Position numbers and translations under genes: made by a program. The notes beneath the pieces are model-generated. The model was given only the letters and a program-made list of their open reading frames with translations. It did no database searches and was not told the DNA's origin. Source: an uncultured bacterium (GTDB lineage Bacteria > Cyanobacteriota > Vampirovibrionia > Gastranaerophilales > Gastranaerophilaceae). From it: a DNA stretch of 64,000 nt. Below, one piece after another: positions 7,522 through 52,330 of the stretch. Numbering within the stretch: position 1 is the first letter of the stretch; each line of letters starts with the position of its first letter. Where the stretch lies: NCBI GenBank assembly GCA_949296355.1, contig CASFPS010000002.1:10781-74780 (forward strand), read 5' to 3'.

Positions 7522-7665
7522 AAAACCTCCTTTCTTTAGCGAAAATTAGCGTTTTAAATAATCAAAATTTTTAGCCCGTATTCTTTTTTATCTTAATATA
7601 AAACGGAAAATATATCAATTAAAAAATATGTTTTTATACCTGTAATTATATTGTATAATTCTGGT

Positions 7666-8373
7666 ATGAAATATCTCAGGTCATTAATTGCTGTATTTTG
7701 TTTTGGAATATTTGGCACAGGTTCAATTATTCTAAACTTTCTCCTGTTTCCTTTTATTAAAAATAATAAAGAGTTGTGTTCGGATATTATTCATGTAGTC
7801 TGGAAATTTTTTCTGTATCTGATGATGTTTTTTGGACTTTTCAGACTTGATATCAAAAATCTCGGAAAAATTGAAAATAAAATTATTGCAGCAACCCACC
7901 CGAGTTTTATTGATATAGTAATTTTAATCGGGCTTATTCCGAGAACAACCTGCGTTGTAAAAGAGGCGCTTGCGCATAATCCGATTTTGAAACACATTAT
8001 CGGAAGCATTTTTATCACAAATGACGTTGATATTGAGGTTTTGAAAGCAGATTCTAAAAAGATGCTTGATAAAGGGTTTAATTTTGTTGTATTTCCGGCA
8101 GGAAGAAGACATAGAAAAGATGAGCATTTGAAGATGAAAAAAGGCGCCGCTTTAATTGCTCTGAATGCCGGTAAGAACATTGTTCCGGTTAAGATTACTA
8201 ATGACGGAGATTTTTTGTATATCCACGAACCTTTTTATGCGGTAAATAGCAGGTGTATAACTTTTGAACTCGAACAAATGCCTGAAATTAATATAAATGA
8301 TTATTCAAATGATACGGAAATATCTGCAAAACACAAAATTACAAAACAACTTGAAGCAGAATTATATAATTGA
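7666..8373 (+). CDS. Lysophospholipid/1-acyl-glycerol-3-phosphate acyltransferase family protein (ApeD-like)
   Basis: HX4D box (THPSFIDIV) and FPAGRR box. ATG 7666 preferred over the TTG at 7651. Confidence 0.75.
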   Translation: MKYLRSLIAVFCFGIFGTGSIILNFLLFPFIKNNKELCSDIIHVVWKFFLYLMMFFGLFRLDIKNLGKIENKIIAATHPSFIDIVILIGLIPRTTCVVKEALAHNPILKHIIGSIFITNDVDIEVLKADSKKMLDKGFNFVVFPAGRRHRKDEHLKMKKGAALIALNAGKNIVPVKITNDGDFLYIHEPFYAVNSRCITFELEQMPEININDYSNDTEISAKHKITKQLEAELYN

Positions 8374-8482
8374 ACATTTAAAATAAAATATCAAGGGGCA
8401 AACCTGTATCTTTTTAAGAAACGTCAGCACAACAAAATACTTTAGCCATAGGCTGATAGTTTCAAGGAAAGGAGGGCAGATT

Positions 8483-8563
8483 ATGGAAAATATCAATTTA
8501 TGTCTTATGATTTTATTTTTGATTTTATTCATAATAAAAAATGACACCCATCAATTAAGATAG
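8483..8563 (+). CDS. 26-aa hydrophobic peptide, candidate type I toxin (copy 1)
   Basis: AGGAGG 7 nt upstream of ATG. Encodes MENINLCLMILFLILFIIKNDTHQLR. The paralog keeps the same length and hydrophobic core. Confidence 0.5.
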   Translation: MENINLCLMILFLILFIIKNDTHQLR

Positions 8564-8614
8564 ATGTCACTTTAGCCATTTACAGGTTACGGCAGTAGCA
8601 GCTGCCGCCCCGAT
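8534..8614 (-). ncRNA. Candidate antisense antitoxin RNA (copy 1), ~80 nt
   Basis: Driven by TTGAAA-N16-TATAAT. Ends in the hairpin UGACAUCUAUC-uuaauu-GAUGGGUGUCA plus UUUUUU. G.U wobbles occur only in the minus sense. Confidence 0.45.
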
Positions 8615-8620
8615 ATTTTT

Positions 8621-8648
8621 ATTATAACCTATTTTGCGGATTTTTCAA
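8621..8648 (-). promoter_or_regulatory. Sigma-70 promoter TTGAAA-N16-TATAAT for antisense RNA (copy 1)
   Basis: -35 at 8648-8643 and -10 at 8626-8621, read on the minus strand. Confidence 0.55.
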
Positions 8649-8666
8649 CCGCAATAAGTAACTTAA

Positions 8667-8695
8667 TTGATTTAAACTTTTAATTTCAATAAAAT
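8667..8695 (+). promoter_or_regulatory. Sigma-70 promoter TTGATT-N17-TAAAAT for toxin mRNA (copy 2)
   Basis: -35 at 8667-8672 and -10 at 8690-8695. Homology between the two modules begins about 6 nt downstream, at the expected TSS. Confidence 0.55.
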
Positions 8696-8810
8696 AAGAA
8701 TTGAACATTCAAAATAAAATATCAAGGGGCAAACCTGTATTTCTAAAGAACTTCGGCACAACAGATATACTTCGATTTCGGTCGATAGTTCCGAAAGAAA
8801 GGAGGTCATT

Positions 8811-8891
8811 ATGGAGAATATCAATTTAACGTTAGCGTTGATTTTATTGATTTTATTCATAATAAAAAGTAGCACTTACCCGAAAAGATAA
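8811..8891 (+). CDS. 26-aa hydrophobic peptide, candidate type I toxin (copy 2)
   Basis: GGAGG 5 nt upstream of ATG. Encodes MENINLTLALILLILFIIKSSTYPKR. Confidence 0.5.
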   Translation: MENINLTLALILLILFIIKSSTYPKR

Positions 8892-8944
8892 GTGCCACTT
8901 CGATTTCTTAAACAGGTTACGGCAGTAGCAGCTGCCGCCCCGAT
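8863..8944 (-). ncRNA. Candidate antisense antitoxin RNA (copy 2), ~80 nt
   Basis: Promoter at 8978-8951. Terminator is a 12-bp stem (GUGGCACUUAUC/GGUAAGUGCUAC) with two wobble pairs in the minus sense only, then UUUUU. Confidence 0.45.
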
Positions 8945-8950
8945 ATTTTT

Positions 8951-8978
8951 ATTATAACCTATTTTGCGGATTTTTCAA
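8951..8978 (-). promoter_or_regulatory. Sigma-70 promoter TTGAAA-N16-TATAAT for antisense RNA (copy 2)
   Basis: Identical to the copy 1 promoter. Confidence 0.55.
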
Positions 8979-9032
8979 TCTTTTGATAAACAACTTGAAG
9001 AATATTTGTATAGTTTATGATATAATATCACT

Positions 9033-9290
9033 ATGAACAGAAAAGAAGAAATTAAAAAATTAATTATTGAGTCGTTAGCGCTGGAAGAGATTACACCCGA
9101 GGATATTAAGGATGACGAGCCTTTGTTTAACGAGGGTTTAGGGCTTGATTCTATTGACGCGCTTGAACTCGGTATGGCTATCAAGCGTAAATACAACATT
9201 TCAATGGAAGAGGATAAAGATGTAAATAAAAAGCATTTTTATTCAGTGAATACTTTGAGCGAATTTGTGGAGTCGAAAATCAATGGCTGA
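9033..9290 (+). CDS. Acyl carrier protein (ApeE-like)
   Basis: 85 aa, phosphopantetheine site LGLDSIDALEL. Confidence 0.85.
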   Translation: MNRKEEIKKLIIESLALEEITPEDIKDDEPLFNEGLGLDSIDALELGMAIKRKYNISMEEDKDVNKKHFYSVNTLSEFVESKING

Positions 9291-9537
9291 GAAGTTCACA
9301 AAAGAGCAGATTCTTGATGAGTTGAAAAAAATTCTGACAGAAGAGCTGGAAATCGATGAAAATGATATTAAGCCTGAAGCAAATTTATTTCAGGATTTAG
9401 ACCTGGACAGCATTGATGCGGTTGATATTGCCGTACGTATGCAAAAATTTACGGACAAAAAGCTTTCTCCTGCAGAGTTTAAGAAGATTCAAACAATTAA
9501 TGACGTAGTGGAAGCTGTTTATGCACTCCTCGGGTAA
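9283..9537 (+). CDS. Acyl carrier protein (ApeF-like)
   Basis: ATG 9283 overlaps the upstream stop (ATGGCTGA). Encodes MAEKFTKEQILDELKKI...DLDLDSIDAVDIA. Confidence 0.85.
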   Translation: MAEKFTKEQILDELKKILTEELEIDENDIKPEANLFQDLDLDSIDAVDIAVRMQKFTDKKLSPAEFKKIQTINDVVEAVYALLG

Positions 9538-9943
9538 GTTCCGGAAAATAACAAAAGCTCTGGCGCCTTTTATCGGAATGTTTGCGGTAATCGGAATTTT
9601 CCATTTTACGGACTTTATTCTGCTTAAATATTATCCGCCTGTAATGAATTTTTGTCTTTTTATGATATTTTTTTCATCGCTTTTTCAGGAAAGAACGGTT
9701 ATACAAAAAATTGCGCTGGCATCTGATCCGGATTCCAATGAAGCGGTTATGAAATATACAAGAAATCTCACGTATATCTGGGCAGCGTTTACGTTTTTAA
9801 ACTTTCTCGTATCTGTCGGAACAGTCTTTATGTCAGAAAAAATTTGGGCTTTGTATAACGGATTTATTTCTTATCTTCTCGTCGGAATAATTTTTATTAT
9901 AGAATATATAGTAAGAATAAATTTTATGAGGAAGTATGGATAA
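9521..9943 (+). CDS. Small polytopic membrane protein of the lipid locus (ApeG position)
   Basis: Four hydrophobic helices. Overlaps both neighbouring genes, suggesting translational coupling. Confidence 0.55.
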   Translation: MHSSGKFRKITKALAPFIGMFAVIGIFHFTDFILLKYYPPVMNFCLFMIFFSSLFQERTVIQKIALASDPDSNEAVMKYTRNLTYIWAAFTFLNFLVSVGTVFMSEKIWALYNGFISYLLVGIIFIIEYIVRINFMRKYG

Positions 9944-11249
9944 TTTTAAGGAGCTTTTAGACAAATTTTTAACAACGGGAGAAATCTCTTTTCAGACCGG
10001 CGGAACAGTTTCCGACGGCAAGTTTGTAAAGGCTCATCTTGATAAAATGCGCATTGAAATGCAGGATATGAAAGACCAGCTTAAACTGGACGGCGGTTAC
10101 AACTATATTTCAACCACAACTCCAAAACACCGCTGGGGCTTTACGTTTCAAATTCTGTATCCGGCACTTACCGGCGGAAAGATTCTTGAAAAAAGAGTGA
10201 ATTATCCGGAAGATATTAATGTTGAAAACGCGGTTCTTGTAACTACACCTTCATTTCTGGAGGCAATGAGAAAATACGGAGATTTGCCGAAAGTTAAACC
10301 GAAAGTCATAATGTCAGCAGGGGCAAAATTGGAGGATAAGACTTTTGAGTTTGCAAAGAGTATTACAGACAGAGTAATAGAGATTTACGGAAGCTCCGAG
10401 AGCGGAAGTATTGCGTGGAGAGAGGATTACAGGGACAGAATGAAGCTTTTCAGAGGGATGAAAGTCCTTGAAATAGGGGAAGATTGTACAAAAATTTATT
10501 CTGAATACTCTTCCTGCAACCCTGTAATTCTTGAAGACAGAATTAAAGTTTATGATAACGGCGAGATTGAGTTTCTGGAACGCAGAGGAAGAGTTTTAAA
10601 AGTTCAGGAAAAGCGGATTATGTCATCTGATGTTGAAGAAGAGATTAACAAACTGGAATTCGTAAACGAATCATACTGCCTTGAATACGGCGGAAAGCTT
10701 GCTGCTTTATGCGTTTTAAACGACAAAGGCAAAGAATTTTTACAAAATAATGACAAACTAACGCTTGTTAAAAAGCTTAAATCCGAACTCAAAAATAAGT
10801 TTGAAATTATACCCCAGAGATGGAAATTCTTTGATGAAATACCAAGGAAACAGACCGGAAAGATTGACAGAGAGTTTATAAAAGAACTCTTTAGCCTTAA
10901 TCTTTCTCTTCCGCTTATTCTAAACCGCGAAGTTACTGAAGGGGTGACAAAATTTAAACTAACGTTTATTCCCAATAGCAATTTTTTCAAAGGTCATTTT
11001 GAAAATATGCCGATTTTGCCGGGAGTTGTGCAGCTATTTTTTGCAAACTGGTTTACCGGAAGAGCTTTCGGGCTTGATTGCGCACTCGGGCAAATCAGAA
11101 GGATTAAATTTTCGAATATCATTAAACCGCTTGATGTTGTAGAATTGGAGCTTAAAAAAACTGAGTCGGGCGTGAGTTTTAAGTATTATAATGAAGAGAA
11201 AACTTTTTCAACAGGAATTTTGCCGGTAAAGAGTTTTTTGCAGGAATAA
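9936..11249 (+). CDS. Fusion of an AMP-dependent ligase-like domain with a FabA/FabZ-like hotdog dehydratase domain
   Basis: N-terminal part has YGSSESGSIAW and QTGKIDRE, resembling the adenylate-forming core. C-terminal part has FKGHFENMPILPGVVQ, the dehydratase His motif. Confidence 0.65.
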   Translation: MDNFKELLDKFLTTGEISFQTGGTVSDGKFVKAHLDKMRIEMQDMKDQLKLDGGYNYISTTTPKHRWGFTFQILYPALTGGKILEKRVNYPEDINVENAVLVTTPSFLEAMRKYGDLPKVKPKVIMSAGAKLEDKTFEFAKSITDRVIEIYGSSESGSIAWREDYRDRMKLFRGMKVLEIGEDCTKIYSEYSSCNPVILEDRIKVYDNGEIEFLERRGRVLKVQEKRIMSSDVEEEINKLEFVNESYCLEYGGKLAALCVLNDKGKEFLQNNDKLTLVKKLKSELKNKFEIIPQRWKFFDEIPRKQTGKIDREFIKELFSLNLSLPLILNREVTEGVTKFKLTFIPNSNFFKGHFENMPILPGVVQLFFANWFTGRAFGLDCALGQIRRIKFSNIIKPLDVVELELKKTESGVSFKYYNEEKTFSTGILPVKSFLQE

Positions 11250-11252
11250 ATT

Positions 11253-11657
11253 ATGAAAAAAATAGTAACAGAATTAAAAATAAAAGTACCGTTTTACGAT
11301 TTAGACCCGATGAATATTGTCTGGCATGGGAATTATGTAAAATATTTAGAGCAGGCACGGTGTGATTTTTTTGACAAACTCGGATACAACTATATGCAAA
11401 TGCATGCGGACGGGGTAATGTATCCGATTGCGAAGATGGATTTTAAGTTCATCAAGTCTGCAAAATTTAACGATAACCTGATTATCCGCTGTATCCTAAA
11501 GGAACTTGAGCCGGCAATTATTATAAAATATGAAATCATGACGGAATCCGGAGAAAAGATTCTGTCGGCTCATACAATGCAAATAGCCGTTTCGACAAAA
11601 ACGGGCGAAACATTGTACGAAGCGCCGGAAGTTTTGAAGAAGGCGGTTTTGGGGTAA
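11253..11657 (+). CDS. 4HBT/YbgC-type acyl thioesterase
   Basis: VPFYDLDPMNIVWHGNYVKYLEQARCDFFDKLG, 134 aa hotdog fold. Confidence 0.8.
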   Translation: MKKIVTELKIKVPFYDLDPMNIVWHGNYVKYLEQARCDFFDKLGYNYMQMHADGVMYPIAKMDFKFIKSAKFNDNLIIRCILKELEPAIIIKYEIMTESGEKILSAHTMQIAVSTKTGETLYEAPEVLKKAVLG

Positions 11658-11779
11658 ATATTAAAGAGTGACGGGTGAAAAGGCTGGCTGTAACCCGAAG
11701 CTTACCCCCTCCCTAACCCTCCCCGTTGGAGAGGGAACGCGCGCTGATGTTCAATTGGAGTAAGGTATACTTTTTTAAT

Positions 11780-11895
11780 GTTAAAGAGATTCTTCACCCC
11801 TGAATTGTTTCGGGTTCAGAATGACGGCAAATTTGTAGGTTTACTTTCCAAAGTGCCGTCATTCAGAGGGCGTCAGCCCGATGAATCCCTTTAAC
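11780..11895. repeat. MITE-like palindromic element, copy a (116 bp)
   Basis: Terminal inverted repeats GTTAAAGAGATTCTTC...GATGAATCCCTTTAAC. Inner hairpin TCAGAATGACGGCA...TGCCGTCATTCAGA. Confidence 0.85.
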
Positions 11896-11926
11896 TTTGG
11901 AAAAATCTTCTATTCACAATTCACCA

Positions 11927-12096
11927 GTTAAAGAGATTCTTCATCCCTGAATTGCTGTTGGGTTCAGAATGACGGCATACTTGGTGTTTGACCTGCCAGC
12001 CCGATATATTTACGCCTGAAAATGACGGCAAGCTTGTAGGTTTACTTTCCAAAGTGCCGTCATTCAGAGGGCGTAAGCCCGATGAATCCCTTTAAC
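11927..12096. repeat. MITE-like element, copy b (longer, nested)
   Basis: Same termini as copy a, with an extra internal half-element. Confidence 0.8.
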
Positions 12097-12732: not shown

Positions 12733-12770
12733 AAACCAAAAGTCCGCAGGGTTTATAAACCCTGCGGACT
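12733..12770 (-). terminator. Rho-independent terminator of the 1111-aa gene
   Basis: AGTCCGCAGGGTTT-ataa-ACCCTGCGGACT followed, in the minus sense, by TTTTGGTTT. Confidence 0.8.
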
Positions 12771-12791
12771 CAAAACCTTTGAGCCAATTAT

Positions 12792-15700
12792 TTACACGCC
12801 TGACTTTTTCAAAACTTCGTTAAGCAGCGCTGCGATTAATCCGTCGAGCTGTTTTGCCGTATCCGAATCATATTTTTCACCGGCTTCATCATTCTGTTTG
12901 AAGTTAAATTTTTCATCCGGCTTAAAGAAATCTGCCAAAGCCTTATATGCTTCTGTATCTTGCAAACCTAATGCTGCAGCTTTTCTCATCAAAGCTTTCG
13001 GGATACGGTTACAGAGCGCCTGTCCCGGTTTTACGCCGGATGACCAGCCGTATTCGTTGGCAATATATTCCATAATGCCTTCATCCGGTGACATCTGGTT
13101 AAATCCGACAAGGATACCGGTTATATTATCAGGAGTAACATAGTTTTCGTAGCCTTCATCTTTTTTGCCTCTGAGCATTTTGGCAATATCACCGGAACCT
13201 GCGCCGTCCAACTCGTTAAACATCGCTATACCGTTAAGATATCCTGTTTTTGAGAGCTTTTTAAGCGACACTGTATCATCTGCTGTTTCAAATTCACCAT
13301 CTGCTCCTTTATAATACCAATTCGTCGCATATAAATTATCGCCGATTAAATACAAATCGTTTCTGACTTTTGTAATCCAGTGTTTCTGGTAAGCCGTTTC
13401 AAAATATTTTGCTCTGTCTTTGTATAATACTCTGTTATCAAATGTACCTTCAAACACTGCGGCTTTGGTTTTGTCATCCCATTTTGCCTGCACGGCATCA
13501 ATTCCGGTAAGTACATCGAACGGAATAACAGATTTATCAAGCTTCATAACATTTTGGATAAATTCATTATCGGAAGTGTTCTCTTTTACAAGCTCACCGA
13601 TTCTTGCTTTTACAGAGTCAGGGTTTTTATCTTTATATCCGGCAATTCTCTCTAAGTCATCTTTCCCGAATACTTTTATAGCTGCTTCAAAGTACTTTTT
13701 AGCGTCGCCTTTTTGGCAATTTCCAGGCAGAACATATTCTATAAAGTGCCTAATATCAGTACCTTCCGGCAGTTTGGTTTTATCAAATGTTACATTGCCT
13801 TTGCCGTCATCTTTCATGCAGAGCTTAGCGAGTACAATTCTGTTAGCATCGGAAATAGTACTACCACTATCAACTTCTTTGAACAGCCGCTTTTTGATAT
13901 CCTCATCATCAGGGAAATTTTCAAGGATTTTATCAAACGGAAGGTTGTAATTTTTCGATACAGAACACTTGTTGTCAATAAAATCAATAACTTCTTCTTT
14001 TGTTTGCATTCCATCTACAAATTCAGCATATCGTTCTCTTATATCATAATTGTTTACTCTATTCTCTATAGCTTCTGAATACTGACCTTTACCCATATCT
14101 TCCAATTTAAGATATTTAAGAAGAGCTAGATCCATGTTAGATGTTGTGTATTGCGACAACCCATCCATCTCTTCATACGTAGGGCGTCTTGACGGATTAA
14201 AGGCGTATGTTTTATTACCCTGCTCATCTGTTGTGACTTCAAAATATGTTTCAAGGATTTCAACTTTAGCCTTATCCTTATCTTCGTAAGACATATCTGT
14301 CTTATCTACCCACTCAAGGTTATTTAAAAATACAGCATTTTCAAGATTGCCTTTGTCTGTTGTATAGATTTCTTTCATTCTTGAGACAACTGCGTCAACA
14401 ACTGCTTTTGAGTATTCTATATCATCATCCGGGCGTGGCAGTTTATTTAAGACTACCATGCCGTTAGCATTAATGAGTGATATAACATCTTCATCCGCAG
14501 CACACAGGGTTTTGGCATTTTCTGCAAGACATTTTGCGAGTTCAGTATCAGTTGTATTAGCGTATTCTTTGAACAAAGCAGCCTTCTTTTCGTCGGTATC
14601 AGCTGCTTGGAGTTTTGTCAAAAATTCATCCAGCAAGGCAGGATCTTTAGCATAATACCAGTTTCCATCAATGTCAACTTGATACATTGGAGTTCCGTCC
14701 AGATTATCATATGACATGTATTTTTCGTAGATACCGTTTTCTTCATCTGCTTCTATTTCATAGCCGCCTTTGCGTTTGTAATCCGCAACAACCTCTTTCA
14801 GGGCAATTTCTTCAGGTGAAAGCATTTCTCCCGCTTTTTCTTTACTTCTTATCTCCTGATACATGCCGGCAACTATCTCATGTGCGGTTTTGTCATTTGT
14901 CAAAACCCTTGAATTTTGATTATCTTCTGCGTCATACAATAGCGCTCTTAGCGCATCAGCGTTTTTGGTAAGCAAAATATCCTGAACAAAAGCTTTATAA
15001 GCGTCTGATTTTCTGTCTACATAATTATCGTCTCGTAGTTTTTCCGCAACATTTTTGATTACCTGAATATTGCCGCCTGAAATTGTTACGAGTTCCTTGA
15101 GGACTGCAAGGTTTTCAGCCTTTCTTGCAGCTGCCGCCTCTTCAGTCTCATCAGCAGGTGCTTCTTTGACTTTATTTATAGTTTCAAGAAATTTAGTTTT
15201 CAACTCCCTTAAAGCTTCCGGAGTCTCGGCAGTTAGTTTTACACCGCTTGATAGTTTTCCTGCATCTTCCTTCCAAACAGTCTGATACATAACCTTATCG
15301 CCGGAAGTGTATTTCATTATACTACCGCCATCTTTATATTTTTGCAGATTATCACCATTCAAGTCCGGAAGAACATTGCCGTCTTTGTCAATATATTGAC
15401 CTGCGCCCATATTCAAACCGTTAGGAGTAACGGTGATTGTAGATTCTTTGCCTTCGAGTACAGGAGGAACTTCTTCTCCGCCTTCCGGCTTAACACCGCC
15501 AGATGGGTTGTTTCCGCCCTCGCCGCCAACAGGATTACTCCCGCCGCCTCCGTGATTTACCGGAGCCGTGCCGCCAAAAGCCGCTGCAGAGTTATTTCCA
15601 GCCTCCTTTACCTTCTGAACACCTTCTTCTGTAAGTTTATAAATTATCTTTGTTCCTACTCTGATATTGTTAACATCATTAATACCATTCAAATTTGCTA

Positions 15701-16127
15701 ACTGCGCAATTCTGTCATTGATTGATTTAAAATCAGTCGGCAGACCTTCTTGCTCCAAAGTTTCTTTTGCAATATCATACAAGGTGTCGCCGTATTTGAT
15801 TTCCCAAACATCAGCCTCACCTGACATATAATAACCTTTCAAAGTTGCCTCATCATACCTTCTCCTCATATTCTGCATTGCATCATTAAAAGCCTTCTTC
15901 GGAGTCTTTCCGTCCGGCGCAAGTTCTACCGTATAATTATTCTCGGCAAGCTTTGTCTTAAGTCCGGCAAGCTCATTTTCATCCAATACACCATTGGTAT
16001 TGCTGTCCAAACCTTCAAAAATATTGTCAACATTACCGCCCAGACGGGTTTTAATATCCTCAATCTTTTCTCCGGCTTTAATAGTAACAACGGTTCCGTC
16101 GCCTAACGTAACATTCAGTCCTGCCAT
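12792..16127 (-). CDS. 1111-aa protein: N-terminal EF-hand loop plus LysM domain, Gly-rich linker, ~850 aa of unknown fold
   Basis: DSNTNGVLDENE (aa 41-52) fits the 12-residue EF-hand loop. LysM: YGDTLYDIAKE...IRVGTKIIYKL. No signal peptide or TM helix. AAAGGAG SD. Confidence 0.85.
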   Translation of the reverse strand: MAGLNVTLGDGTVVTIKAGEKIEDIKTRLGGNVDNIFEGLDSNTNGVLDENELAGLKTKLAENNYTVELAPDGKTPKKAFNDAMQNMRRRYDEATLKGYYMSGEADVWEIKYGDTLYDIAKETLEQEGLPTDFKSINDRIAQLANLNGINDVNNIRVGTKIIYKLTEEGVQKVKEAGNNSAAAFGGTAPVNHGGGGSNPVGGEGGNNPSGGVKPEGGEEVPPVLEGKESTITVTPNGLNMGAGQYIDKDGNVLPDLNGDNLQKYKDGGSIMKYTSGDKVMYQTVWKEDAGKLSSGVKLTAETPEALRELKTKFLETINKVKEAPADETEEAAAARKAENLAVLKELVTISGGNIQVIKNVAEKLRDDNYVDRKSDAYKAFVQDILLTKNADALRALLYDAEDNQNSRVLTNDKTAHEIVAGMYQEIRSKEKAGEMLSPEEIALKEVVADYKRKGGYEIEADEENGIYEKYMSYDNLDGTPMYQVDIDGNWYYAKDPALLDEFLTKLQAADTDEKKAALFKEYANTTDTELAKCLAENAKTLCAADEDVISLINANGMVVLNKLPRPDDDIEYSKAVVDAVVSRMKEIYTTDKGNLENAVFLNNLEWVDKTDMSYEDKDKAKVEILETYFEVTTDEQGNKTYAFNPSRRPTYEEMDGLSQYTTSNMDLALLKYLKLEDMGKGQYSEAIENRVNNYDIRERYAEFVDGMQTKEEVIDFIDNKCSVSKNYNLPFDKILENFPDDEDIKKRLFKEVDSGSTISDANRIVLAKLCMKDDGKGNVTFDKTKLPEGTDIRHFIEYVLPGNCQKGDAKKYFEAAIKVFGKDDLERIAGYKDKNPDSVKARIGELVKENTSDNEFIQNVMKLDKSVIPFDVLTGIDAVQAKWDDKTKAAVFEGTFDNRVLYKDRAKYFETAYQKHWITKVRNDLYLIGDNLYATNWYYKGADGEFETADDTVSLKKLSKTGYLNGIAMFNELDGAGSGDIAKMLRGKKDEGYENYVTPDNITGILVGFNQMSPDEGIMEYIANEYGWSSGVKPGQALCNRIPKALMRKAAALGLQDTEAYKALADFFKPDEKFNFKQNDEAGEKYDSDTAKQLDGLIAALLNEVLKKSGV

Positions 16128-16168
16128 ACAAAAACTCCTTTATCAAATTCTTACATCTTATATCTGGT

Positions 16169-16195
16169 ATATCGGCAGATTTTTCAAAAACTTTA
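16169..16195 (-). promoter_or_regulatory. Sigma-28 (FliA/SigD)-type promoter TAAAGTTT-N11-GCCGATAT
   Basis: Minus-strand read of 16195-16169 gives TAAAGTTTttgaaaaatctGCCGATAT, matching 15 of 16 positions of the E. coli FliA consensus TAAAGTTT-N11-GCCGATAA. The -10 lies 42 nt upstream of the ATG. Confidence 0.75.
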
Positions 16196-16247
16196 ATTAT
16201 TTTGAGAGAAATTTTACAAATCGTTACATATTTATCTGCAGACAGTT

Positions 16248-17312: not shown

Positions 17313-18701
17313 CTAAACAGTTGCCATTTTTTCCTGAAGAGTATGCGCAGACTCTTCATAACCCGCTCTTCCCATAAGCGCGTATGTATAATTCTTTGCC
17401 TGCTCAACTCCCGGCTGGCTGAATGTATCAATGTTATACAATTCTCCGGCTATAGCTGTCTGAACCTCCAGCATATAAAGAAGCTGGGCTATATTATATT
17501 CATCAATTCTTTCAAGAGAAATTGTCATTGTAGGACGTGAATAATCGGCAAGCGCAACTCTTGTAGAATCCGCTTCCGCATTAATCAAATCATTAATTGT
17601 TTTGCCGCCCAGATACCCTATGCCTGTATAATCAAAAATTTTAGGAATCTCAAGCGTTGTATCAAAGTTTTCAACACGGATAAATGTAATAACTTTGTTA
17701 TTAGGTCCTTCGTTATAAAGCTGGATTTGCGAGTGCTGGTCTGTTGCTCCGAGAGCCTTAATAGGAGTAGGACCTATATTAACCTTTTCGCCGTTATTAT
17801 TGTATTCTTTGCCCAGAGACTCTGCCCACAATTGCACAAACCAATCGGAAACATATTTGAGCCTGCTTGAATACGGCATCATAACAGAAAGATTCTTCCC
17901 TTTTTTGGTATCAAGAAGATATTGTACCAGAGCCCCTTGAGCCGCAATATTCTGGTGAATATCAGTGTTTTTAAGAGCCAGGTCCATGTCCTTGATTCCG
18001 TTCATAATCCGGTCAATATCAAGCCCGACAAGCGCAAACGGAACAAGCCCTACTGCAGAAAATACCGAAAATCTTCCGCCGACATCATCCGGAACAACAA
18101 AAGTTTTGTATCCCTCCTGATCGGCAAGCTGTCTTAAAACACCGACTTTTTTATCTGTAGTTGCAACAATATTGCGTCTGTAATTGTCGCCGAGTTCTCG
18201 CTCCAGGCGGTCTTTAATTATCATATACTGGGACATAGTCTCAGCCGTAGAGCCGGATTTTGTTATAACATTTACAAGGGTTTTTTTAAGGTCAAGAATG
18301 TCCAAAAGTCCGTTCATCGAATCAGGGTCGATATTGTCAAGAAAGAAAATCCTCGGGAGTCCTTTTCTCTGCTCCGGCGAAAGAAGATTCCAGTAAGGTT
18401 TCAAAAGAGCCTCTGTTACGGCAAGTCCGCCGAGAGCCGAGCCGCCGATTCCGAGAACCAGAATGTTATCAAACCTGCCTTCCACCATTGAAGCAAATTC
18501 TTTAACATACCAGACCGTTTCTTCATTGTAGCCTAAATTCATCCATTGAAGCCACTGTCCCGGTTTATCTTTCCTCTGGTTTAAACTCTTGATAATGTCG
18601 GAAATTTTGTCTTTGTAATTTTCAAATTCCTCTTTCAGGTTTAACCCGTCAGCCTCTCCGATAATTTGAGAGTCAGTGTTTCTAATGTTTAATTTAAGCA
18701 T
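17313..18701 (-). CDS. pgi: Glucose-6-phosphate isomerase
   Basis: GIGGSALG and TKSGSTAET SIS motifs, 462 aa. Confidence 0.85.
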   Translation of the reverse strand: MLKLNIRNTDSQIIGEADGLNLKEEFENYKDKISDIIKSLNQRKDKPGQWLQWMNLGYNEETVWYVKEFASMVEGRFDNILVLGIGGSALGGLAVTEALLKPYWNLLSPEQRKGLPRIFFLDNIDPDSMNGLLDILDLKKTLVNVITKSGSTAETMSQYMIIKDRLERELGDNYRRNIVATTDKKVGVLRQLADQEGYKTFVVPDDVGGRFSVFSAVGLVPFALVGLDIDRIMNGIKDMDLALKNTDIHQNIAAQGALVQYLLDTKKGKNLSVMMPYSSRLKYVSDWFVQLWAESLGKEYNNNGEKVNIGPTPIKALGATDQHSQIQLYNEGPNNKVITFIRVENFDTTLEIPKIFDYTGIGYLGGKTINDLINAEADSTRVALADYSRPTMTISLERIDEYNIAQLLYMLEVQTAIAGELYNIDTFSQPGVEQAKNYTYALMGRAGYEESAHTLQEKMATV

Positions 18702-25351: not shown

Positions 25352-25479
25352 AGAACTTATTATACTATAAAATCAACCGGCATACCAAACACGCTCTTTT
25401 CGCAAAGAAAATTGAAATAATTCTAATAACCTTATATATCATGTAAACTTTTGTAACAAAGCCCCTTATATTTTCCTTA

Positions 25480-25515
25480 AAAAGGCAATTTTTATTGAAA
25501 CGAAGACTTTATATA
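25480..25515 (+). promoter_or_regulatory. AAGGCA-ATTTTT upstream box (degenerate sigma-28-like), copy A
   Basis: AAAAGGCA-N11-AACGAAGA-CTTTATATA. The CGA core occupies the same register as the copy at 50034..50069. Confidence 0.4.
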
Positions 25516-25547
25516 AGTAAGGTTAGATAAATATAGGTTAGGTTGGT

Positions 25548-28210: not shown

Positions 28211-30097
28211 TTACCCCTCTTGCTCAGTTTCAGAATTGCGCTTGTTCCTGACTTCATTCATCAAATCTTCAAATTCTTTTTCGTCAAGAGTTTCTTTTTC
28301 AAGCAGGTTTTTAGAAATATATTCAAGCATATCTCTGTTGTCGTTCAAAAGCTGCTTAGCTTCTTCGTATTGTTTATCAACAATCTTCTTGACTTCTTTA
28401 TCAATATCAGCAGCAATTTCTTCCGAAAAGTCTCTTGTGTTACCGAAATTTCTGCCCATAAAGATATGTTCCTGCTCTTTTCCGTAAGCTAAGTTGCCCA
28501 TTTTTTCGCTCATACCATAGGTTGTAACCATGCTTCTTGCAAGCGCGGAAACTTTTTCCAAGTCATTTGATGCGCCTGTTGTAACATTATCTTTTCCGTA
28601 GATAAGTTCTTCTGCAACACGTCCGCCGAGAATCATTGTAATTCTGTCAAGAAGCTGGTTCTTGCGCATTGTAAGATGATCTTTTTCAGGAAGCGTAAGC
28701 GTGATACCGAGTGCCATTCCTCTTGGAATAATGGAAACTTTGTGTAAAGGATCGCAATTTTTAAGAAGTTTTGCAAGAAGAGCATGCCCAACTTCGTGGT
28801 AAGCTGTGTTTTCTTTTTCTTCGTCTGAAATAATTCTGCTTTTCTTTTCAGGTCCTGCCATAACTTTATCAATAGCTTCTTCCAAGTCAGGCATTTCTAT
28901 TTCAGACTTATCATGTCTTGCCGCAAGCAAAGCCGCTTCATTAAGAAGGTTTTGTAAATCTGCACCGGTAAATCCCGGTGTACGCTTTGCAAGAGTTTTT
29001 AAATCCACTTCTTTTGCAAGCGGTTTGTTTTTAGCATGAACATTAAGAATCTGCTCTCTTCCGAGAACGTCAGGTTTATTGATAACGATTTGCCTGTCGA
29101 ATCTTCCCGGTCTTAAAAGAGCGTTATCTAAGATATCCGGTCTGTTAGTTGCAGCGAGAATAATTATATTCGTATTTTCATCAAAACCATCCATTTCAAC
29201 AAGGAGCTGGTTAAGGGTCTGTTCTCTTTCATCGTGACCGCCGCCTAATCCTGCACCTCTCTGGCGTCCTACGGCATCAATTTCATCAATAAATACAATA
29301 CAAGGCTGGTGCTTTTTTGCCTGCTCAAATAAGTCTCGAACACGGGAAGCACCTACACCAACGAACATTTCAACGAAATCAGAACCGCTTATTGAAAAGA
29401 ACGGAACGCCGGCTTCTCCTGCAACTGCTTTTGCCATAAGTGTTTTACCCGTACCCGGAGCGCCCACAAGGAGAACACCTTTTGGAATTTTTGCGCCGAG
29501 TTTTACGTATTTGTCTGAATGTTTTAAGAAATCAACAATCTCTTCAAGTTCTTTTCTCTCTTCATCAATCCCCGCAACATCGGCAAATGTTGTCTTAACT
29601 TTGTTATCCATAAGCATTTTTGCTCGGCTTTTTCCGAAGGACATTGCCTGCGCGCCGCCTGCCTGAATGGATTTTATTATGAGCATAATAAAACCCAGAA
29701 CAAGAAGTATCGTTATAAGAGATGACCCCATTGAAAAAGCCGAACTTGAATCGCTTGAACGCTTAGCATTAATCTCAACATTGTTTTCTTCAAGTTTTGC
29801 AAGTACATCAGAGTTTTCCGGAAGAAGAACTTTGTACTGTAATTTTGGCGGCTTTACTTCTCCATACAAAGGATTTGTATTAGACTTTTTTGCCTCCGGC
29901 TGTTTTACGGGAAGAGCAATTAAAGAATCTCTTCCTATATCAACACTTTTAATCTCTTTATTTTCAACTTTTTGTATAAAGTTTGTGTAAGACAATTCCT
30001 GTGTGCTGGAAGTCGGTCCGGAAAAAAGCATTGAAATAAACGCTAAGACCATAATACCAAGGATTACATACATCCCGATTGATTGATTTTTGTTCAT
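28211..30097 (-). CDS. ftsH: ATP-dependent zinc metalloprotease FtsH
   Basis: Walker [19 protein letters not shown] zinc motif, 628 aa. Confidence 0.97.
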
Positions 30098-30178
30098 AGT
30101 TCTCCTTCTCTACTGTTATTTCATTATAACAAAAAAAGGGTATATGGTAAATCGGGAGCAAATGTAACTTTTTGTTTA

Positions 30179-30216
30179 CAAAAGGTCAATTTTTTCACTG
30201 ATAGAAACTTTATATA
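30179..30216 (+). promoter_or_regulatory. AAGG(T)CA-ATTTTT upstream box, copy E
   Basis: AAAAGGTCAATTTTTTCACTGATAGAAACTTTATATA. Same length frame as copies A and B. Possible -10 CTGATAGA. Confidence 0.35.
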
Positions 30217-30241
30217 TATAAGGATTATTACAGGGATATTT

Positions 30242-31282
30242 ATGAGCGCACATAATTTCTGGAACAATTTCACACACGGTTTTATGCACGGAGTATTTAA
30301 CAATAATCCGTTTTTTGGTTGTATGAACTGGGGCTGGTCCTTCAACAGCTGGTGTAATCCCTTCAACAGCTGCTTTGCACCTTTCCCTGCAATGATGTAT
30401 ACTTATCCGAATGTAATGTCACCTGTAAGTATTTTCCCTTTGATGCCAAGTATCCCTATGCCTCAATTTCCGGATGTGAAGATTGATATTAATGAACTTT
30501 TCCCGCCGGATAAATGGACTGCTCCGACATACTCAGACTTTAGTATGGGAGATACATTTGTAAGTTCAACGACATCTAATCCGATTACATCAATTCCGAA
30601 TTCAAATTATAATTTTAGTTTTATCGGACAGACTCCGTCTGCTCCGTCGGCTCCATCTGTTGCGTCTGCTCCGTCTGTTGCACCTGCTGTCTCATCAGCT
30701 CCTGCAACACGTCATACTTCTTCAACAACACGAAGCTCATCGGTAAGTTCATCGTCTCTTGCAGCATTAAAAGGCAAACACTGGACAGAGATGACAGATT
30801 CTGAGATGAGACAGGTTTACGGCGATTATACAAGAGATATTACTAAGCCTTATAATGGCACGGCAGAGGATTTAAATAAATATCTTAAAGGCAAAGGCGT
30901 TCTTGAAGGTCAGGGACAGGCATTTATAGATGCGCAGAAAAAATACGGCATAAGCGCTTCTGTACTGGTTGGTATTGCAATGAATGAATCCGGCGGCGGC
31001 AAAAGTAAAAATGCAAGAGAAAAGAACAACGTAGGCGGTGTACGTATTCCGGGGTCTACAACATTTAAAACGTATTCTTCTGTTGCAGAATGTATAAGTG
31101 ATATGGCAAGATTTTTAAAATCCGGTTATGTAAACAATAACGGGCGTCCGCTTACAAAATTGTATCAAATAAATGCAAAATACTGCCCTAGTTCTGACCC
31201 GACAGATAGAGATAATGTAAACTCTTTCTGGGCAAGAAATGTAGACAGATATACTTCCGAGGTAGAAACTGCTCTGGTTTAA
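30242..31282 (+). CDS. Glucosaminidase (GH73/FlgJ-C-like) peptidoglycan hydrolase with Pro/Ser-rich N-terminal region
   Basis: C-terminal ...LVGIAMNESGGGKSKNAREKNNVGGVR...YCPSSD. Start moved to ATG 30242 because the track ORF overlaps the ftsH start. Confidence 0.75.
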   Translation: MSAHNFWNNFTHGFMHGVFNNNPFFGCMNWGWSFNSWCNPFNSCFAPFPAMMYTYPNVMSPVSIFPLMPSIPMPQFPDVKIDINELFPPDKWTAPTYSDFSMGDTFVSSTTSNPITSIPNSNYNFSFIGQTPSAPSAPSVASAPSVAPAVSSAPATRHTSSTTRSSSVSSSSLAALKGKHWTEMTDSEMRQVYGDYTRDITKPYNGTAEDLNKYLKGKGVLEGQGQAFIDAQKKYGISASVLVGIAMNESGGGKSKNAREKNNVGGVRIPGSTTFKTYSSVAECISDMARFLKSGYVNNNGRPLTKLYQINAKYCPSSDPTDRDNVNSFWARNVDRYTSEVETALV

Positions 31283-50104: not shown

Positions 50105-52330
50105 GTGTCACAAATTAATCCGAATATAAATAATCAATATAATCAGGAACAGGCAATGCTTATGCAGCAGCCGCAGCAGCCGCGCCCTCAGCAAATGCAG
50201 CCGGTTCGTTTACCTAACTATTATTATGTTCCTGATACGTACAGACCGAGTGCAAAAGAGATGATTAAAGAGAATCCGATGTACGACATGTTCTTAAAAC
50301 CTTTTATAGAACATCCGCTTGCGCTTCTCGGCACATGGCTGGGGCTGGGAATCGGGCTTGATGCGTATTCAAGAGCTTGCGGGGGAGAGTACGACAAGAG
50401 CCTGGTAAAGAAAGCTGCAGATTTCGGAGACAACATTCAAAACTCAAAATTCGTACAGAGCAAGCCTGTTCAAACAGTAATAAGCGGGTTTAATGCTGCA
50501 GGAAAAGCCGGACATAAAGCGGTTCAAAACAGTGCAATTCTGCGTGCTATGAAAGAAACTCCGACAATGCCGGAATGGGCTATGGTTAAGTCTCAAATGT
50601 TTAACCAGAAACAGGAAATCGTGCAGGAATTTTTGAAAATCACGGATACATTAAAACTCGAAAATGCCGAAATTCCTAAACTAAAAAATCTCGGACTTAA
50701 TGATTATGAAAAATCAATGCTCAAGAAAGTTTTTAATGTCCAAAAAATCTCACAAATTCCGGAGCAGGAAGCGGTTAATCAAATTCTTTTGAACCGTCTG
50801 GGAAAATCTCCGGAAGAAATTCAAAAGATACAGAAACTCGGCGCAATATCAACAAAGACCGTAAAAGAAGAAATCCTAAAAGAAATGGGTTTAACGACAG
50901 ACAAGCTTAAACTCATTAAAGATGATGTTTACGGAAACTATATTAACGATGTTAAGACTGCTGCCGAGAAAGTAAAAGGCAAAGTCAGAATCGGAGCCGG
51001 TCATTATCCGTGGCTGGGAGCTTTCACTAAGCCTTTTGAAAGAACAATCGGATGTGATGAGGTTTATAATAAACTTCACAGTATTATGGAAGGTCCTAAA
51101 ACCGCAACCGGAAGATTTACTTCAAAGCTTATGCAGATGGTACACCGCGGATTTACCTTCGGCGGCGGTAAACTCGGGGCTTTAATATTTATTGCGCCTC
51201 TTCTTGTTGAACTCGGAGTCAATGTTAAAAAGGCAGACAAAGACCAGAAAGTCGGAACTGCTGCAAACGGTTTTGTTGATAATATCTCGTGGGTATTCAC
51301 TTTCCCTCTGGCGCTTAGAATGCTGCACGCTATAGGCGGTATTAAACATGCCGGCATGGGAAAAGATAAAGTTGAACAGGTTAGAAAACTTACGGAAGAG
51401 TTTAACAAACGTGTTGAAACAACTATAGTAAAAGACGGTGTAAAAATTCCTAATCCGAACACCTTCAAGAATAAATTAGAATATGATCTTGCAAGGGCTC
51501 AGGTTGAAAAACAAATCAAAGCTTTGAAAAAAGTTGAAGGTCAGAATATTTTCACAAAAGGTATAAGAAAGCTTGCCGGAATTTTGACTCCTGATTTATG
51601 CCGCCTGAACAGTTACAGAAATTCTAATGCTATTGCAAATACAACCCGTAAACTTCCTGCCTTCTTTAGAAACTGCGCCGGTATTCCGATAAGAGTCGCA
51701 GCTTGGGCAGCTTTATCTATGGGAGTTCTGGGCGCAGCGCTTACGAAATGCACAACGGCAATTTTTGGAAAGTCTTATGATTCAATGAAACAGGACGAAA
51801 GAAAAGATAACTTGAAAGCCCAGCAAAAATTCCTGAAAGATGATTTAAACGAACGTTTATACGAACTCCAGCGTATAAAACAGTACGGAAATACTCCCGC
51901 AAGGCAGGTAATACCTCAAGGACAAATGATAGTTTCAAGAGGCAGGTCAGAGAACGGGATGAATATAACTTCTCCGGAAATAGAAAATAATACGGTTGAT
52001 AATTATACTTATATCCCGTCTCAAGACAACAAAATCCCTTATATTCCGGAAAACAACAGTGTAGATAATTATACCTATATTCCGTCTCAGGACTCAAAGA
52101 TTCAGTCTCCGGTTAAAGACGGTAAAACGGATAATTACACTTACATACCATCTTGGGAAAATAAAATAAAACCGGAGCCGGAGAAGAGCAGATATATTCC
52201 GTCCCAGAAGGCTGCAAATATCCAAAAAACTTTTGATAACTCCGGAATTCAGGGAGTTCTGGACAGAGCACAAAAAGCGGAAGACAAAGCTTTGAGGGTT
52301 CTTGCGGGAAACTTTGACGGAATGGTATAA
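50105..52330 (+). CDS. 741-aa polytopic membrane protein: Q/P-rich N-terminus, C-terminal DNYTYIPSQ repeats
   Basis: GTG 50105 (alternative ATG 50156 has the better SD, AGGAACAGG). At least 4 hydrophobic helices. Four copies of the YIPS(Q/W) motif between nt 51990 and 52215. Confidence 0.6.
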   Translation: MSQINPNINNQYNQEQAMLMQQPQQPRPQQMQPVRLPNYYYVPDTYRPSAKEMIKENPMYDMFLKPFIEHPLALLGTWLGLGIGLDAYSRACGGEYDKSLVKKAADFGDNIQNSKFVQSKPVQTVISGFNAAGKAGHKAVQNSAILRAMKETPTMPEWAMVKSQMFNQKQEIVQEFLKITDTLKLENAEIPKLKNLGLNDYEKSMLKKVFNVQKISQIPEQEAVNQILLNRLGKSPEEIQKIQKLGAISTKTVKEEILKEMGLTTDKLKLIKDDVYGNYINDVKTAAEKVKGKVRIGAGHYPWLGAFTKPFERTIGCDEVYNKLHSIMEGPKTATGRFTSKLMQMVHRGFTFGGGKLGALIFIAPLLVELGVNVKKADKDQKVGTAANGFVDNISWVFTFPLALRMLHAIGGIKHAGMGKDKVEQVRKLTEEFNKRVETTIVKDGVKIPNPNTFKNKLEYDLARAQVEKQIKALKKVEGQNIFTKGIRKLAGILTPDLCRLNSYRNSNAIANTTRKLPAFFRNCAGIPIRVAAWAALSMGVLGAALTKCTTAIFGKSYDSMKQDERKDNLKAQQKFLKDDLNERLYELQRIKQYGNTPARQVIPQGQMIVSRGRSENGMNITSPEIENNTVDNYTYIPSQDNKIPYIPENNSVDNYTYIPSQDSKIQSPVKDGKTDNYTYIPSWENKIKPEPEKSRYIPSQKAANIQKTFDNSGIQGVLDRAQKAEDKALRVLAGNFDGMV

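Follow-up and report, generated by a model that had tools for sequence, protein, structure and literature searches.

The promoters read by the flagellar sigma factors FliA, SigD and WhiG (sigma-28) are of an already known type, and at the characterised ones transcription starts ~6-9 nucleotides (nt) past the -10 octamer. In Campylobacter jejuni, sigma-28 co-expression extends to Fed, Cia and FlaC. LysM domains characteristically work outside the cytoplasm, on peptidoglycan or chitin. Furthermore, it has been shown that the flagellum of C. jejuni secretes the non-flagellar Fed and Cia proteins. Here we analyse a stretch of 64,000 nt (positions 10,781 to 74,780 of contig CASFPS010000002.1, GenBank assembly GCA_949296355.1; hereafter the window) from an uncultured bacterium of the family Gastranaerophilaceae, in which a promoter of the sigma-28 type precedes a gene for a leaderless LysM protein of 1111 amino acids (aa). 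The Gastranaerophilales are uncultured, non-photosynthetic relatives of cyanobacteria that are common in non-industrialised human guts and whose biology is known through gene inventories only. Complete flagellar gene sets have been described in three of nine genomes of the clade (PMC4040986). The evidence presented below indicates, with high confidence, that the window gene is under the control of FliA.

The -35 element TAAAGTTT and the -10 element GCCGATAT of this promoter are separated by ttgaaaaatct (11 nt, in the minus-strand read of the window). Compared with TAAAGTTT-N11-GCCGATAA, 15 of the 16 positions agree and the spacing is exact, which bears out the near-perfect FliA promoter that the first-pass annotation of this DNA had placed at 16195-16169. 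It is the sole match in the 64 kb when at most one mismatch is allowed, and none of 100 dinucleotide shuffles gave any such match; at up to three mismatches the scan is uninformative (three matches observed in the window versus 1.7 expected). The -10 element had been described as lying 42 nt before the ATG: the arrangement of AAAGGAG and ATG (16127..16125, minus strand) stands, but the gap is 41 nt, the figure of 42 counting one end. The Shine-Dalgarno sequence GAAAGGAG is kept among homologues in the alignment of upstream regions. A CsrA-type site in the 5' untranslated region was also considered, and the sole GGA there is that of the Shine-Dalgarno sequence. Given this promoter at the 5' side, a strong intrinsic terminator at the 3' side and the lack of any sigma-70-like site upstream of the gene on the same strand, the gene is monocistronic.

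The promoter is conserved throughout the protein family. The 25 related loci found in species-representative genomes (given below, like further loci and contigs, as L numbers) all come from metagenome-assembled genomes of Gastranaerophilales, Melainabacteria or Vampirovibrio; the G+C content is ~38%. The upstream DNA was aligned for every homologue with a recovered 5' end. A sigma-28-type motif is present at the same position before every one of these homologues, down to ~33% protein identity and including the most distant members (L021 and L024, 33-37% identity). All 19 loci of the initial round of alignment carry it 37-50 nt from the start codon, with the consensus CCTAAAGTTTTT-N9-TGCCGTAA(A/T). 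The spacer is 11 nt, or 12 nt in some homologues (e.g., L005 and L007), and the -10 element is degenerate in L008 and L023. The information-content profile of 21 non-redundant promoters is flat except for three blocks, namely TGTAA..TTGTAA (-33 to -19, counted from the T of TAAAG), C-TAAAGTTTTT and TGCCGTAA, and the DNA flanking these blocks diverges among homologues. Thus, the sigma-28 identity proposed for the single window promoter holds at the level of the family, with the motif fixed in position and a footprint limited to the upstream repeat, the -35 and the -10.

Across ~417 kb of clade DNA, the only other occurrences of the strict motif are before a gene for a 136-aa protein, a gene for a 391-401-aa protein and, in L013, one additional gene. 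When metagenomes were scanned with the clade-style pattern, flagellin and FlgM genes of unrelated bacteria with higher G+C content were matched as well, indicating that this pattern marks genuine sigma-28 promoters. The target family is absent among the 120 loci listed by that scan, and regulon proportions are not derivable from it.

The clade encodes the cognate sigma factor, frequently as a neighbour of the gene, in agreement with the link to sigma-28 that had been claimed from the window. The product of L025 5007..5849 is a FliA/WhiG sigma factor (TIGR02479, 233.9 bits versus a cut-off of 189.6; NF005413 was also passed). The fliA gene stands head-to-head with a member of the target family in six loci (L019, L021, L025, L026, L151 and L152), and in L006 it lies 3 kb from an orthologue that is 79% identical to the window protein. 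Two of these loci, L151 and L152, were retrieved through FliA alone, independently of the target family, and in both the divergent neighbour of fliA is again a family member with the same promoter; the L152 member comprises 1183 aa, with 38-42% identity over the full length and a LysM match of 23.5 bits. FliA itself is strongly conserved, more than 120 clade clusters being 83-95% identical to that of L025. From these relatives, we infer that fliA is encoded in the genome that carries the window gene. In three loci (L016, L025 and L026) flagellin genes lie within 6 kb of a family member. An additional protein, 2.3 kb from the family member in L020 (11308..14424, minus strand), is 1038 aa long, contains GGxGxD-like repeats and ends in a Flagellin_C domain (Pfam, 27 bits); a Flagellin_N match was not reported for it.

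The conserved block upstream of the -35 element is a direct repeat, TTTACAAA-TC-GTTACATA. On the strand of the gene it reads TGTAA-N5-TGTAA and begins 33 nt ahead of the -35 octamer. For the HLR1 box bound by RpaB in cyanobacteria, the published consensus is (G/T)TTACA(T/A)(T/A)-NN-(G/T)TTACA(T/A)(T/A) (PMC6525291), which the window repeat fits with 0 mismatches. No other site in the window fits it perfectly; when one mismatch is allowed, four matches are found versus 0.39 expected. A second HLR1-like repeat of the window is located at 25440..25457. Of 33 sigma-28 sites, 21 have the repeat exactly at -33 and one has it at -23, while degenerate forms are seen in others. If transcription starts 6-9 nt past the -10 element, the box would be centred near -60, a position within the -66 to -45 range published as activating, and a regulator binding there probably assists FliA-driven transcription.

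The same repeat also precedes rpoB (L020 ~5643, minus strand; L022 ~9663, plus strand), pheS (L006 ~5959, plus strand), flagellin genes (L025 ~1520 and L026 ~1547, both minus strand) and others, suggesting that it is a general promoter-upstream element of the clade and not a sigma-28 accessory. A candidate binder is the OmpR-type regulator (Response_reg and Trans_reg_C domains) whose gene in L018 (4684..5340, plus strand) immediately precedes the family member. A tblastn search with an approximate RpaB-like query identified no RpaB orthologue; it gave only generic OmpR-family similarity (38% in L018) and is not used as evidence. A reading of the TGTAA element as an NtcA/CRP-type palindrome was rejected, given that it is a direct repeat with a 10-bp period. 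Two small genes with no relation to each other have AAAAGGCAATTTT(T)A in common past an HLR1-like repeat (window 25458..25547, L015 ~13910..13975 and L029 ~17815..17880), a sequence that loosely recalls the sigma-54 -24/-12 element.

The position of the repeat also raises an explanation in terms of the housekeeping sigma factor, in which TTGTAA is a -35 element followed, after an 18-nt spacer, by the -10 element TAAAGT, and GCCGTAA serves as an operator or an element at the start of the transcript. In nearly all copies of the repeat, TTGTAA is indeed placed 18 nt ahead of TAAAGT, and the repeat is found before the housekeeping genes rpoB and pheS; at those two genes and at flagellin, however, TAAAGT is not found at that distance past the repeat. 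Such a promoter would also leave aside the conservation of the full 16-position sigma-28 consensus, GCCG included, with its diagnostic spacing of 11-12 nt, the recovery of flagellin and FlgM promoters in unrelated bacteria by the same pattern and the adjacency of fliA in six loci. We regard this explanation as highly improbable.

The product of the window gene is acidic (pI 4.73; 197 Asp and Glu versus 143 Lys and Arg). It contains no hydrophobic segment (maximum Kyte-Doolittle mean over 19 residues, 1.07) and hence neither a Sec signal nor a transmembrane (TM) helix. An AlphaFold2 (AF2) model obtained with 85 homologues has a mean predicted local distance difference test score (pLDDT) of 87.7 and a predicted template modelling score (pTM) of 0.66. 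In this model, the LysM domain, which passes the Pfam cut-off (27.9 bits versus 20.9), has its fold at residues 105-165, in a strand-helix-helix-strand arrangement (E107-109, H116-126, H133-147, E160-162), and the Gly-rich linker that follows it, residues 187-220, is disordered (pLDDT <50) and varies in length and sequence across the alignment. The acidic leaderless character, the single LysM domain and the linker are all as the first-pass annotation had described them.

The same annotation had reported a canonical EF-hand loop, which is the case only in part. Residues 1-70 form a module consisting of an N-terminal beta-hairpin and a helix-loop-helix, and the loop is flanked by helices 34-37 and 50-62 in the AF2 model. 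Residues 41-53, DSNTNGVLDENE(L), fit PROSITE PS00018 (checked by regular expression and by hand), and so do the sequences of 13 other type-A homologues; among the 85 homologues, D41 and E52 never vary and G46 is present in at least 90%. In a profile search, the region also shows weak similarity to EF-hand chains, calbindin among them (E 0.01-0.05). The loop is longer in the type-B subfamily. The Pfam EF-hand_1 model, however, remains below its threshold (12 bits versus 25.4), and there is a single loop, with no paired hands. The putative Ca-binding loop is best called EF-hand-like or dockerin-like.

The remaining ~880 residues form a conserved core, with a small beta domain (residues ~229-300) and a large, mainly helical domain that reaches the C-terminus in the AF2 model. 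Among the invariant motifs are SRRPTxEE (646-653), EDMGKGQY (676-683), DFIDNK (715-720) and PFDKIxEKF (730-738). The C-terminal ~150 residues (~960-1106) are a separable module that is found alone or duplicated elsewhere. In L151, for example, the protein encoded next to fliA (7703..9835, minus strand; 710 aa) combines the N-terminal module and LysM with two copies of this last module, suggesting that it is an independent unit. The core has no match in Pfam, NCBIfam, PHROG or PADLOC, and Foldseek searches of the AF2 model against the PDB and BFVD returned only generic helical solenoids with TM-scores of at most 0.15, so that no fold can be assigned. Hence the ~850 residues for which no family had been recognised from the sequence remain without one after modelling and structure comparison, and number ~880. 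Matches of the protein to EF-hand, Tricorn_C1, DUF7151 and flavodoxin were rejected as below threshold, and a PDB profile match to designed armadillo repeats as inflated, each repeat match being weak. An origin from a phage, defence system or mobile element has no support from PHROGs, PADLOC or gene context.

Several of the invariant motifs contain Asp or Glu residues, and a confidently folded core of this kind could be an unrecognised hydrolase or lytic transglycosylase, with an active site drawn from E626, E653, D677, D715, D732 and E736 and with LysM targeting the enzyme to peptidoglycan for motility-coupled wall remodelling. The combination of LysM with a sigma-28 promoter parallels the logic of LytF in the SigD regulon. 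We consider such an enzyme improbable, given that Pfam and NCBIfam detect no NlpC/P60, amidase, GH73, SLT or other hydrolase domain, that neither the PDB sequence profiles nor Foldseek give a match, that a signal peptide such as those of LytC, LytD and LytF is missing, and that family members without LysM exist.

The family includes at least 157 homologues and is confined to the clade; a profile search of 1.84 billion representatives identified 62 at E <=1e-30, showing the family to be small, and in nine additional profile matches Pfam detected only LysM or a sub-threshold EF-hand. Some members have N-terminal extensions of ~750 aa. The ratio of nonsynonymous to synonymous substitution rates (dN/dS) is 0.14-0.32, which indicates purifying selection, and the identity within the family drops to ~40%, versus 83-95% for FliA. 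Alleles are mosaic: in alignment A1 (P0001, P0005, P0010, P0012 and P0016), blocks of 98-100% identity alternate with blocks of 53-76% within the same pair, and fully identical (100%) blocks directly border blocks of 53-58%, suggesting frequent recombination within the gene.

We propose the following scheme. RNA polymerase carrying FliA would begin transcription ~35 nt before the ATG, helped by a regulator on the HLR1-like direct repeat centred near -60. The leaderless acidic product would be exported independently of Sec, and its most plausible route is the flagellar type III apparatus, with which FliA-dependent genes are expected to be co-expressed. Outside, the N-terminal module may hold Ca2+ through its one EF-hand loop, LysM may retain the protein on peptidoglycan or another N-acetylglucosamine polymer, and the flexible Gly-rich linker would display the ~880-residue core. 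Flagellar export is favoured because LysM acts outside the cytoplasm, the protein has no leader, the gene is linked to fliA, recombination among the alleles resembles that of exposed proteins and Fed and Cia of C. jejuni provide a precedent. Taken as a whole, a self-contained unit of the FliA regulon whose product is exported and held at the wall is the best explanation that we can offer, with a confidence that falls slightly short of even. The part of it that concerns flagellar export together with anchoring to the wall or surface is tentative, and we hold it to be a possibility of clearly lower standing than the transcriptional control.

Several observations weigh against this scheme. No fliA or flagellar gene was found among all the open reading frames (ORFs) of the 64-kb window, and there is no conserved synteny of the family with flagellar structural genes, its neighbours being housekeeping genes that vary by lineage. 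Full flagellar sets are present in ~25% of Gastranaerophilales genomes, the rest keeping flhB, fliI and flgG (bioRxiv 10.64898/2026.04.24.720558), and co-expression of the window gene with a working export apparatus is assumed. A well-folded protein of 1111 aa is a demanding substrate for type III export, and its N-terminus is modelled as a beta-hairpin (pLDDT 65-73), whereas flagellar export substrates typically have a disordered tail there. The members in L005 and L007 lack LysM and carry another EF-like N-terminus. A common allele of a prevalent gut species (P0022, P0383 and P0384) is split by a frameshift inside LysM into 150 and 851 aa. The absence of LysM in some members and its disruption in this common allele suggest that wall binding is not essential for the function of the core. 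Finally, the flagellin genes of L016, L025 and L026 have no sigma-28 motif and instead show a sigma-70-like TATAAT or TATAGAAT, so that the regulon is not a classical late flagellar one.

The pieces of the split allele were found on 221 and 134 contigs versus 23 contigs for one intact 1019-aa member, and the split could reflect decay, phase variation or a functional division of the protein. No chaperone gene conserved near the family members was found.

Some of these observations would fit a FliA-dependent protein that stays in the cytoplasm, as a scaffold or regulator of the FliA programme (motility, cell cycle or differentiation; cf. WhiG of Streptomyces and sigma-28 of Chlamydia), with the LysM-like domain binding a cytoplasmic glycan, a precursor or another protein. 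No export signal of any kind was detected in the protein, its N-terminus is ordered in the AF2 model, flagellin is outside the regulon, LysM is dispensable in some members, and the core is helical and solenoid-like, with only generic alpha-solenoid scaffolds retrieved by Foldseek and a weak ARM-repeat-like stretch at residues 541-578. A cytoplasmic role would nevertheless be at odds with the typically extracytoplasmic action of LysM domains, with the mosaic recombination of alleles, which suggests external selection, and with the fast divergence of the family (~40% identity versus 83-95% for FliA), which suggests exposure. We therefore judge it unlikely, albeit deserving of consideration.

It had been expected that the motif would precede flagellin, mot and che genes; this did not hold, given the three clade flagellins that lack it and the failure to find any mot or che gene behind it. 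Among clade-like metagenome contigs (low G+C and the TGTAA repeat), none has a recognisable flagellar gene behind the motif, and on 36 low-G+C contigs with the clade repeat the motif precedes almost only unannotated genes. Pfam identified no family in ten motif-driven representatives except for one FlgM, which is encoded behind the motif on L031, a low-G+C contig without the repeat. The motif-driven orphans include a 136-aa family, a family with the N-terminal sequence MGLAASQARLL, a family with a SYAxKCW motif, several very small ORFs and giants of 744-1947 aa. Thus, the FliA regulon of the clade appears to be dominated by lineage-specific orphans.

The flagellin sites concerned are L025 1346..1530, L026 1372..1560 and L016 6887..7030 (all on the minus strand). 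The leaders of the clade flagellin genes are ~100-120 nt long, with AGGGA or AAGGA motifs, one of which overlaps the ribosome-binding site, and resemble the CsrA-controlled flagellin leaders of other bacteria.

Several orphans merit a brief description. The gene for the 136-aa protein, which begins with MAE(S/T)FNLN, is served by a sigma-28 promoter and an HLR1-like repeat of its own, placed back-to-back with the promoter of the target family inside the same ~190-bp intergenic region. The MGLAASQARLL(T/S)LTAR family comprises proteins of 320-685 aa, including the product of the 401-aa gene, with helical N- and C-termini around a variable middle; its 1163 homologues are all unnamed or "hypothetical", without a match in Pfam, NCBIfam or the PDB. 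Other orphans, which sit behind sigma-28 promoters or on contigs with one, have a loop of the EF-hand pattern within the first ~60 residues (L034 333..1772, minus strand; L119 313..966 and L043 2973..3443, plus strand; L141), which hints at a shared N-terminal Ca-binding module. Table 1 lists the coordinates of the principal features.

Table 1. Features of the window gene with its upstream region (window coordinates) and locations of two orphan families in related loci
Feature	Position	Strand	Basis
HLR1-like direct repeat TTTACAAA-TC-GTTACATA	16213..16230	+	Consensus match; candidate activator (OmpR/RpaB-type) site
Sigma-28 -35 element TAAAGTTT	16188..16195	-	Sequence match; invariant or nearly so before all homologues
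Sigma-28 -10 element GCCGATAT	16169..16176	-	Sequence match; clade consensus GCCGTAA(A/T)
Predicted transcription start zone	16158..16163	-	Predicted only, from characterised sigma-28 promoters
Shine-Dalgarno sequence AAAGGAG, 7 nt ahead of ATG	16135..16141	-	Sequence read
Coding sequence, 1111 aa (stop codon 12792..12794)	12792..16127	-	ORF call
EF-hand-type predicted Ca-binding loop DSNTNGVLDENE, residues 41-52	15972..16007	-	Pattern match
LysM domain, residues 110-162	15642..15800	-	Pfam PF01476, E 2.3e-6, 27.9 bits (cut-off 20.9)
Disordered Gly-rich linker, residues 187-220	15468..15569	-	AF2 pLDDT 24-28
Conserved core, residues 226-1111 (~880 aa)	12795..15452	-	pLDDT mostly >90
Intrinsic terminator: 14-bp stem (8 G-C pairs), 4-nt loop, T-rich tail, 21 nt past stop	12740..12771	-	
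136-aa orphan loci	L011 5399..5809 (-); L014 5400..5807 (-); L002 5380..5787 (-); L067; L121		
MGLAASQARLL family loci	L029 14072..15277 (-); L015 ~10201..11373 (-); L017 ~10840..12042 (-); L037, L038, L074, L081, L130		

A broader hypothesis can be formulated on this basis, although we consider it rather doubtful. FliA might be a master switch for lineage-specific leaderless orphans that are exported by the flagellar type III gate and co-activated through an HLR1/RpaB-type element. The set would include the LysM/EF-hand family of ~1100 aa, the 136-aa family, the MGLAASQARLL family with its more than 1100 members and others. The exported proteins would be surface or host-interaction factors, and the RpaB-type regulator would derive from the ancestor shared with photosynthetic cyanobacteria.

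Beyond the known promoter type, we found no name, family or paper for the -10 variant of the clade, the fixed coupling of the promoter with the HLR1-like repeat, the flagellin-free orphan regulon or the LysM/EF-hand family, all of which appear undescribed. The locus supplies a FliA promoter consensus for the clade and, with it, a handle on regulation in Gastranaerophilales, in which this promoter serves large, fast-evolving, recombining proteins without an assigned fold rather than flagellin. Should the flagellar export route hold true, it would account for the many genomes that keep FliA and export genes without complete flagella and would name candidate host-interaction factors; should the link to HLR1 hold, the RpaB-type regulatory code would reach beyond the photosynthetic lineages.

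Other genes of the window include a small lipid/aryl-polyene-like cluster downstream of the 1111-aa gene (7651..11657, plus strand; also L027 14331..17992), which encodes an acyltransferase, two acyl-carrier proteins (seen in L027), an AMP-binding/ApeI-dehydratase fusion and a thioesterase. A 399-aa ORF with a C-terminal GH73 glucosaminidase domain (30083..31282, plus strand) overlaps the end of ftsH by 15 nt and has no sigma-28 motif upstream. A 741-aa protein with a Gln/Pro-rich N-terminus is encoded at 50105..52330 (plus strand).

Compared with the class III flagellar promoters of the FliA/SigD/WhiG type, the window promoter has the same two elements, the same spacing and the same position before a monocistronic gene, with the cognate sigma factor encoded in the clade. 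It differs in the clade -10 consensus GCCGTAA(A/T) in place of GCCGATAA, in the HLR1-like repeat fixed 33 nt upstream and in the lack of the motif at flagellin genes. The HLR1/RpaB system of photosynthetic cyanobacteria is matched by the 18-nt window sequence and, if the start is as predicted, by the position of its centre in the activating range, whereas the host here is non-photosynthetic and the box accompanies a sigma-28 promoter and is found before housekeeping genes as well.

As regards the protein, the SigD-dependent autolysins of Bacillus subtilis (LytF with its LysM repeats, LytC and the GH73 enzyme LytD) likewise combine a sigma-28-type promoter with a peptidoglycan-binding product, but have Sec signals and catalytic domains, neither of which is present in the window protein; given that no catalytic domain was found, the analogy with autolysins has no direct support. 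FlgJ, the rod-cap muramidase, is leaderless, wall-directed and exported by the flagellar type III apparatus without a Sec signal, a route that is only proposed here; it combines a rod-binding domain with a GH73 glucosaminidase, is not encoded by a late gene of the sigma-28 class and has no homology to the window protein. The polar landmark proteins HubP and FimV share with the window protein a large size, an acidic character, one N-terminal LysM and a connection with motility, but in these a signal or TM segment splits the periplasmic LysM from the cytoplasmic acidic region, whereas the window protein has no TM segment; no FimV-type family is found among its Pfam matches at E up to 1. Fed and Cia of C. 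jejuni are small and have no sequence or fold kinship with the window protein, which is 1111 aa long, carries LysM and is only proposed to be exported. Nevertheless, Fed, Cia and FlaC, being leaderless products of a gut flagellate that do not build the flagellum, offer the closest functional parallel to the route proposed here.

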